Assembly: GCF_057098645.1 (NCBI RefSeq)
Contig: NZ_CM169472.1
DNA: 64,000 nucleotides
Direction: 5' to 3' (one strand)
Each line of letters begins with the position of its first letter. Positions within the stretch are counted from its first letter, which is position 1. The position numbers and the translations under genes were made by a program. The notes below the pieces were generated by a model, which saw only the letters and a list, made by a program, of their open reading frames with translations, was not told the origin of the DNA and ran no database searches. This document shows positions 51,317 through 52,425 of the stretch, piece by piece.

Positions 51317-51969
51317 TTTGGCAACTTACCGACGATAAACGCTGGTCGGCGCTACGTCAGCGTTTTAGCTGGGTTGAGGAGATGCATCACACGCCACAAG
51401 ACCCGGAGCATCATGGTGAAGGCGACGTCGGCGTGCATACCGAAATGGTGCTTAACGCCCTCGTTACTCTGCCAGAATTCCAGCAACTCCCCGCTCAACA
51501 GCAGGAAGTTTTATGGGCGGCGGCGTTATTGCATGATGTTGAAAAGCGCAGCACTACCGTGCAGGAAAACGGACGTATTCAGTCGCCGGGCCATGCTCGT
51601 CGGGGCGAACTGACGGCCCGGCTGATTTTGTGGCGCGATATCCCAACGCCGTTCGTGCTGCGCGAGCAAATCGTTGCGCTGGTGCGTCTGCATGGGTTAC
51701 CGCTATGGTTACTGGAACGTCCGGAACCGGAGCGTTTGCTGCTCACGGCTGCAATGCGCATCGACACGCGTCTGCTCGCTTTGCTTGCTCGTGCCGATCT
51801 GCTTGGTCGCCAAAGCCCGGATCGGCAATCAATGCTGGAACGCATCGATCTGTTCGAGCTGTTTTGCCAGGAGCAACAGTGTTGGGGAAAAGTGCGCTCG
51901 TTCGTGTCTGATTCCGCACGCTGGCATTACCTGACCCATGAGCAAAGTTCTCCTGATTTTGTTCCCTGA
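51313..51969 (+). CDS. HD-domain metal-dependent phosphohydrolase
   Basis: 218-aa ORF; HD signature [10 protein letters not shown] ... LLHDVEK. Confidence 0.55.
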
Positions 51970-51993
51970 GAGGCTGAACCTTTTGAGGTCATT

Positions 51994-52425
51994 TTGCTGT
52001 GTGGCTTACCGGGTATGGGCAAAGATCGCTATATCAGTAAACAGTGCCAGGGAATTGACGTTATCAGCCTTGATGATATGCGGCGGCGAATCAATGCCAG
52101 CCCGGATGACAAAACCGCTACCGGGCGTATTGTGCAACAGGCAAAAGAAGAGGCGCGCGTTTTTTTACGCCAGAAAAAGCCGTTCATCTGGAATGCAACG
52201 AACATTACCCGCCAGCTGCGTAGCCAGCTCATCAGCCTGTTTACGGCTTACGGCGCACGAGTAAAAATCGTTTATCTTGAAGTGCCATGGGCGCAATGGA
52301 AGCAGCAAAATGCCAGACGCGAGTATGCAGTTCCTGACGCGGTCGTGATGCGGATGGCCTCAAGGCTGGAAGTTCCTCAACCTGATGAAGCACATAGCGT
52401 GGAGTATCGGGTGATTGAAAGGTAA
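51994..52425 (+). CDS. P-loop nucleotide/polynucleotide kinase-like protein
   Basis: 143-aa ORF from a TTG start; Walker A-like (VILL)CGLPGMGKD at the extreme N-terminus; in the same frame as the HD gene, separated by one TGA and 8 codons. Confidence 0.45.

Follow-up and report, generated by a model that had tools for sequence, protein, structure and literature searches.

The window (the whole 64,000-nt stretch of DNA that was analysed) has the context of an Escherichia coli O145:H28-type chromosome, with emrA, emrB, luxS, MicA, gshA, yqaA and yqaB as neighbours of the locus described here. As expected of an E. coli chromosome, the MicA sRNA occupies 53058-53129 between luxS and gshA (Rfam RF00078, 83.9 bits). 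The space between emrB and luxS (50352-52473) is taken up by a 2.1-kb cassette of two genes, an RNA-ligase-like gene and HD-Pnk. The features of this cassette are as follows.

50359-50380, plus strand: terminator-like hairpin just after the emrB stop codon (50351), with the stem AAAGGGAGC...GCTCCCTTT and then a T-run; it separates emrAB from the cassette.
50609-51316, plus strand: RNA-ligase-like gene (235 aa), first of the cassette, with the nucleotidyltransferase motif TEKLDGEN (PF09414, RNA_ligase; E-value: 3.6e-28).
51313-52425, plus strand: HD-Pnk gene in its entirety, 370 codons, of which codon 219 is a stop; intact ORFs of 370 aa align with it colinearly.
51313-51969, plus strand: HD (2',3'-phosphoesterase-type) ORF, 218 aa, from the ATG at 51313 to the TGA at 51967-51969.
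51967-51969, plus strand: premature TGA at codon 219, ancestrally TGG (Trp) according to the allele alignment, with G changed to A at 51969.
51970-51993, plus strand: eight codons (EAEPFEVI) that complete the linker and begin kinase strand beta1, of which they encode three residues.
51985-51988, plus strand: GAGG, Shine-Dalgarno-like, 5 nt upstream of the TTG at 51994.
51994-52425, plus strand: kinase ORF of 143 aa read mechanically from the TTG (codon 228), without the first half of beta1.
52003-52026, plus strand: Walker A motif (P-loop) GLPGMGKD, residues 231-238, with Asp where Ser or Thr is usual.
52431-52466, no strand assigned: GC-rich hairpin (CCGGGC...GCCCGG) with an A-run on one side and a T-run on the other, read from the sequence; its computed detection covers 52437-52452 only.

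The stop codon of the RNA-ligase-like gene overlaps the HD-Pnk start codon (ATGA at 51313-51316). The GC-rich hairpin sits between the HD-Pnk stop codon (52423-52425) and that of luxS, and is probably a bidirectional terminator.

The cassette is a presence/absence polymorphism in E. coli. It is present, always on the chromosome, in 999 of 5426 complete E. coli genomes (approximately 18%), among them UTI89, CFT073, Nissle and O145:H28 strains; the carriers are mainly ExPEC-type strains such as the first three. K-12 has no cassette: its emrB-luxS gap is only 63 bp long and has an unrelated spacer sequence, such that the whole emrB-luxS spacer of the window differs from that of K-12. When this spacer was inspected against K-12, neither direct repeats nor a mobile-element signature were seen at the cassette ends. 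Around the locus, the window differs from O145 strain RM9872 at 4 of 7911 bases (49572, 50036, 51525 and 54577). Over the cassette, the window has no identical counterpart among the complete genomes of the collection, and the best match has a single mismatch, at 51525. Neither cassette protein was matched to a defence system by PADLOC.

The HD ORF matches the HD domain only weakly (PF01966; E-value: 0.0085, 16.8 bits against a curated cut-off of 22 bits) and has a faint similarity to the HD region of CCA-adding enzyme. The HD residues that are near-invariant in the family (H34, H42, H74-D75, K78, H94, H127 and D162) are nevertheless all present in the window. The kinase part, taken together with the eight codons upstream of the TTG (51970-52422), has the conserved domain PF13671 (AAA_33; E-value: 2.4e-32). 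Its near-invariant positions (K237, D254, R257, R303 and R336) are intact, and the first three of these correspond in the alignment to the Lys of the P-loop and to the Asp and Arg that follow it in Clostridium thermocellum Pnkp (CthPnkp). In NCBIfam no specific model was found, only weak partial matches to bacterial Pnkp, PSTK and the HD region of CCA-adding enzyme. When the kinase part of an intact allele was compared by sequence and by fold, its closest relatives were polynucleotide kinases (the CthPnkp kinase, mammalian PNKP and T4 Pnk).

In a very confident AlphaFold2 model built for the intact allele (117 homologues; pLDDT 97.2, pTM 0.94), the helices of the HD domain extend to residue 208, and an ordered linker at 209-224, beta1 at 225-230 (EVILLC) and the P-loop at 231-238 follow. 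Codon 219 is thus a linker codon, and the HD domain is already complete before it. Because the TTG is codon 228, translation from it truncates beta1, removing residues E225-I227 of this core strand, including V226. The sequence-only reading had proposed that a TTG start cuts into the strand preceding the P-loop, and the model bears this out.

That reading had also placed the HD stop codon (TGA at 51967-51969) and the TTG at 51994 in the same frame with eight codons (EAEPFEVI) between them, and all of these coordinates were confirmed. Positions 51313, 51967 and 51994 share one frame (position mod 3 = 1), and the in-frame TTG comes 25 nt after the stop. A shared frame alone has a one-in-three chance of arising. 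Here it is more than chance because the entire 1113-nt stretch is colinear with single 370-codon ORFs of other E. coli. The annotations of UTI89, 2018-05-2CC, ATCC 25922 and 33F4 give a single 370-aa protein for these 1113 nt. A 161-nt alignment at the stop shows that, within this codon, the window differs from the intact alleles only at 51969 (A instead of G); the intact alleles examined all have TGG (Trp219) at this position. The TGA-bearing copy of O145 RM9872 is annotated by RefSeq (PGAP) as a pseudogene with an "internal stop".

The distribution of the TGA was assessed with an 81-nt query centred on the stop. This query matched 979 genomes, 26 of them exactly, and all remaining carriers matched by it had at least one mismatch. 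The exact TGA allele is thus present in 26 of the 999 cassette-carrying complete genomes and absent from the other 973. All 26 either carry an O145 label (O145:H28 or O145:NM where the label is fuller) or have no serotype label; their sources are cattle, produce, water and patients, and they represent different laboratories, isolates and years. The TGA is a real allele fixed in one clone, E. coli O145:H28.

The closest intact allele, that of 33F4, 32F4 and 33E, is only two bases away from the window gene (51571 and 51969). As 33F4 shows no substitution relative to the window downstream of the stop, the lesion is recent. Among more distant E. coli HD-Pnk alleles, dN/dS is 0.1-0.2, so HD-Pnk is normally under purifying selection. 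The TGA allele occurs in a successful pathogenic clone and has undergone no further decay, a pattern in keeping with a very recent lesion but also with a split that is tolerated or even useful. The 33F4 allele has a missense change of its own, Gly87Arg (window 51571), at a Gly that is near-invariant in the family (DGRI motif), and judging from this residue the 33F4 copy may be impaired too.

Homologues were collected in three ways. A word-indexed protein search returned 2299 relatives, the best 120 of which include 112 near-full-length proteins (340-420 aa, mostly 366-377 aa) from Enterobacterales and Bacteroidota that cover both domains. An exhaustive search of 50%-identity representatives gave 574 clusters at E <= 1e-30; almost all of the best 150 of these (35-56% identity) match as one stretch, from approximately residue 10 to residue 365. 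A scan of sampled genomes, one for each species, found at least 27 full-length loci, and in all 27 of the matches listed (from six or more phyla, among them Bacteroidota, Cyanobacteria, Myxococcota, Actinomycetota and Proteobacteria) a single open frame runs across both domains. A ligase gene is directly upstream of HD-Pnk in 14 of these 27. No homologue in the lineages examined, covering the 27 loci listed and essentially all protein matches, is encoded as two genes, and no separate kinase gene with its own start site was found among them.

The residue aligned with the TGA is W, Y or F in 112 of 113 close homologues. In 130 of 151 distant homologues it is Y, F, H or W, with Pro, Val and others occurring rarely; neither Cys nor Sec is found at column 219 among the residues counted in these 113 close and 151 distant proteins. 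V226, the residue of beta1 that a TTG start would remove, is invariant in the close set (113/113). The alignment that the sequence-only reading had put forward as a check thus finds the HD and kinase domains fused elsewhere and an aromatic residue at the position of the TGA. Some short, frameshifted proteins (P0053, P0054, P0034 and P0040) were considered as a sign of recurrent decay and rejected. P0053 implies a 1-nt deletion in the T-run equivalent to 51981-51984, five codons past the O145 stop. This deletion, the only frameshift checked against the 999 complete genomes, is present in none of them, and the frameshifted proteins are therefore probably short-read assembly errors.

The Walker A motif had been read correctly from the sequence as GLPGMGKD with Asp at the Ser/Thr position (52003-52026), but the suggestion that this Asp might indicate altered or lost kinase activity does not survive comparison with the family. 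GLPGMGKD aligns with GSSGSGKS of CthPnkp. Asp is found at this position in 111 of 113 close homologues, the other two having Asn. The 151 distant homologues comprise 117 with Asp, 25 with Ser or Thr, 5 with Asn, 2 with Glu and 2 gapped. Asp and Ser/Thr divide the HD-Pnk family at about 80:17. The side chains of Asp, Ser/Thr, Asn and Glu are all able to bind Mg2+. The HD-Pnk of Runella slithyformis, the kinase activity of which is said to define the family (reportedly described by Munir and Shuman in 2017, J Bacteriol 199:e00739-16), has the Walker A sequence GLPGTGKD, such that GKD is conserved in an active family member, a finding that the earlier reading had itself named as counting against its suggestion. 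GKD is not a defect, since Asp is the prevailing residue here and the Runella enzyme, which is biochemically active, has it as well. Across the aligned sequences it is a family hallmark and a normal functional form of the P-loop, not a mark of decay. The HD-Pnk of Deinococcus radiodurans was also considered as a test of GKD, but it carries the minority form GKS and is uninformative.

Taken together, the two ORFs are very probably the two halves of one HD-Pnk gene, cut by a G-to-A transition that changed TGG to TGA at codon 219, and form a pseudogene in O145:H28. An ancestral HD-kinase fusion interrupted by a recent nonsense mutation had been among the explanations offered from the sequence alone, and it is this one that the TGG-containing sister ORFs, the fused homologues and the RM9872 pseudogene annotation uphold. 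The other explanations fare less well. A sequencing or assembly error, in which the real genome has TGG, would need only the single base by which the alleles differ, but the identical 81-nt stretch with the TGA is found in 26 independently assembled complete genomes of such varied origin that an error is vanishingly improbable. Programmed recoding, in which the UGA is decoded as selenocysteine or efficiently read through so that the full-length protein is made by design, has in its favour that UGA is the leakiest stop codon and also the codon used for Sec. In addition, tRNA-Trp decodes UGA as a near-cognate at background level, and such readthrough would put back the ancestral Trp. The stop is followed by G, however, which is not a notably leaky context. 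No SECIS-like structure was found downstream: the 64 nt from the stop (51967-52030) fold no better than shuffled sequence (z = 0.25, with 116 of 200 shuffles folding as well or better), and an Rfam search of 50300-53200 at a permissive E-value gave nothing but MicA. Because homologues have Trp or another aromatic residue at this column and never Cys or Sec, selenocysteine is excluded for practical purposes. As 973 of the 999 E. coli carriers do not have the exact TGA allele and TGG is the codon in those intact alleles that were examined, recoding by design is scarcely credible.

The remaining alternative is a functional split. Ribosomes could re-initiate at the TTG at 51994 (or at the ATT at 51991) by means of the GAGG, and the resulting separate HD and kinase proteins would continue to heal RNA at both ends. 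The stop comes only after the whole HD domain, the GAGG is 5 nt from a TTG that itself begins 25 nt after the stop, and the downstream ORF is undamaged and keeps all of its catalytic residues; some kinase-domain polypeptide could, on this spacing, be made from the GAGG and TTG. The GAGG is conserved coding sequence (codons F-E-V), however, and together with the TTG it is identical in the intact alleles and does not make up an evolved start site. The product would lack E225-I227, including the invariant V226, the allele is limited to one clone and two-gene encoding occurs in no lineage examined. A functional split is accordingly quite unlikely, and the non-canonical initiation proposed earlier becomes unnecessary once the fusion is recognised. 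A more speculative combination, in which the UGA acts as a leaky valve giving full-level HD protein, a trace of Trp-readthrough fusion, a small and possibly stress-dependent amount of re-initiated kinase and hence a re-tuned ratio of 3'- to 5'-healing, is considered very improbable. The preferred reading remains that of a single HD-Pnk gene interrupted by a point mutation.

A biochemically characterized relative of this gene is that of R. slithyformis, where HD-Pnk has been purified and is a bifunctional end-healing enzyme (PMC6097658). A putative ATP-dependent ligase gene precedes it, its 3' end overlapping the HD-Pnk ORF, and a Tpt1 / methyltransferase-HIT pair lies further upstream (PMC6097658). 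The Runella ligase-like protein self-adenylylates but seals none of the substrates tried (PMC6097658). The Runella locus was reached here via the PDB sequence of Runella Tpt1; its gene order agrees with that published, and a spacer of about 150 nt is 151 nt by the called coordinates and 152 nt in the paper. HD-Pnk of the 33F4 allele, which is two bases from the window, is 52% identical to Runella HD-Pnk over 367 aa (E-value: 3e-139), and the window ligase is 57% identical to the Runella ligase-like protein. Given these identities and the same layout, the E. coli cassette is orthologous to the Runella ligase/HD-Pnk pair. Both HD-Pnk proteins have the two-domain architecture and nearly the same length (368 aa in Runella and 370 aa in E. 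coli), a GKD Walker A (GLPGTGKD and GLPGMGKD), an aromatic residue at column 219 and a ligase-like ORF immediately upstream with overlapping ends. Unlike the Runella gene, the window copy has a nonsense codon between the domains, and Tpt1 and methyltransferase-HIT, the genes ahead of the ligase in Runella, are missing from the E. coli cassette. The window therefore has the full-length homology, the HD residues, the P-loop kinase and the overlapping upstream ligase of an HD-Pnk locus; what is absent is the single polypeptide. As only this last feature fails, and the ancestral allele has it, the window copy is a disrupted member of the HD-Pnk family and not a member of a different one.

The D. 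radiodurans enzyme (DR_B0098, in the ligB operon of megaplasmid MP1; 2500-5203 of the extracted locus) is likewise an HD and P-loop kinase fusion with a homologous small RNA-ligase-family gene upstream (TEKLDGEN). It is, however, only 28% identical to the E. coli protein, is 413 aa long and has a canonical GKS, and a TIGR02452-family gene lies between its ligase and HD-Pnk genes. HD-Pnk has been reported to be necessary for ionising-radiation resistance in this organism (PMC6300522). 5'-OH kinase and 2',3'-phosphoesterase activities are known for the Runella and Deinococcus enzymes only (PMC6097658, PMC6300522), and no study of E. coli HD-Pnk itself was found in the literature. Among proteins of known structure, the kinase domain is closest to that of CthPnkp in both sequence (4gp6, E-value: 3e-4) and fold (Foldseek TM approximately 0.71-0.75 on the target). 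HD-Pnk shares the catalytic Asp and Arg after the P-loop and the healing-and-sealing logic with CthPnkp and phage T4 Pnkp. In contrast to HD-Pnk, the phosphoesterase of CthPnkp is a metallophosphoesterase and that of T4 Pnkp a DxD acyl-phosphatase, neither of them an HD domain; the domain order of CthPnkp (kinase-phosphatase-ligase) and T4 Pnkp is the reverse of that in HD-Pnk, and their Walker A is GKS.

In Dysgonomonas sp. ZJ279, the ligase and HD-Pnk genes are found in a larger co-oriented cluster (526-7100 of the extracted locus) with genes for RtcB, an RF-1-domain (PrfH-like) protein, Tpt1, a Nudix/NrtR-like regulator, a NADAR-domain protein and DUF4291. The order is RtcB, PrfH-like protein, Tpt1, ligase, HD-Pnk, regulator, NADAR-domain protein and DUF4291, and the cluster looks like a combined RNA-repair and ADP-ribose-processing island.

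The E. coli cassette carries other lesions that are independent of W219*. The ligase gene of ATCC 25922 (3050-3747 of its extracted locus) is annotated as "frameshifted", and in ATCC 25922, Nissle 1917 and two further strains the cassette match is 10 bp shorter. In C325, an O145-type strain, the ligase gene is interrupted by an IS3-family element. IS200C elements are found inside the matched cassette region in several strains.

The proposed model for the consequences of the mutation is as follows. Intact HD-Pnk, the second gene of an end-healing-and-sealing cassette, joins a predicted N-terminal HD 2',3'-phosphoesterase to a C-terminal P-loop 5'-OH polynucleotide kinase. In the O145:H28 Shiga-toxin-producing E. 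coli (STEC) clone, a single G-to-A transition converted linker codon 219 from TGG (Trp) to TGA. Translation would stop after the complete 218-aa HD domain, and the kinase domain would not be made, or only in trace amounts. Such traces might arise by near-cognate readthrough of the UGA by tRNA-Trp, which would restore the wild-type protein, or by accidental re-initiation at the TTG at 51994, which would give a kinase without half of its first core strand. The ligase-like protein would still be produced in O145:H28, as would the HD phosphoesterase domain on its own. With little or no kinase, the cassette would lose the conversion of 5'-OH to 5'-phosphate that a classic ligase needs; from the position of the stop, a loss of kinase output in O145:H28 is thus predicted.

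The two ORFs are best annotated as one HD-Pnk pseudogene, as RefSeq has done for O145 RM9872, and not as an HD protein and a separate kinase. The locus holds an ordinary pseudogene of a known family, one that has already been annotated, and the finding matters little beyond annotation. For the family, it means that "GKD" in HD-Pnk proteins should not be taken as a sign of a dead P-loop. For E. coli, W219* provides a clean marker of the O145:H28 STEC clone, which would represent a natural kinase-null variant of the cassette.
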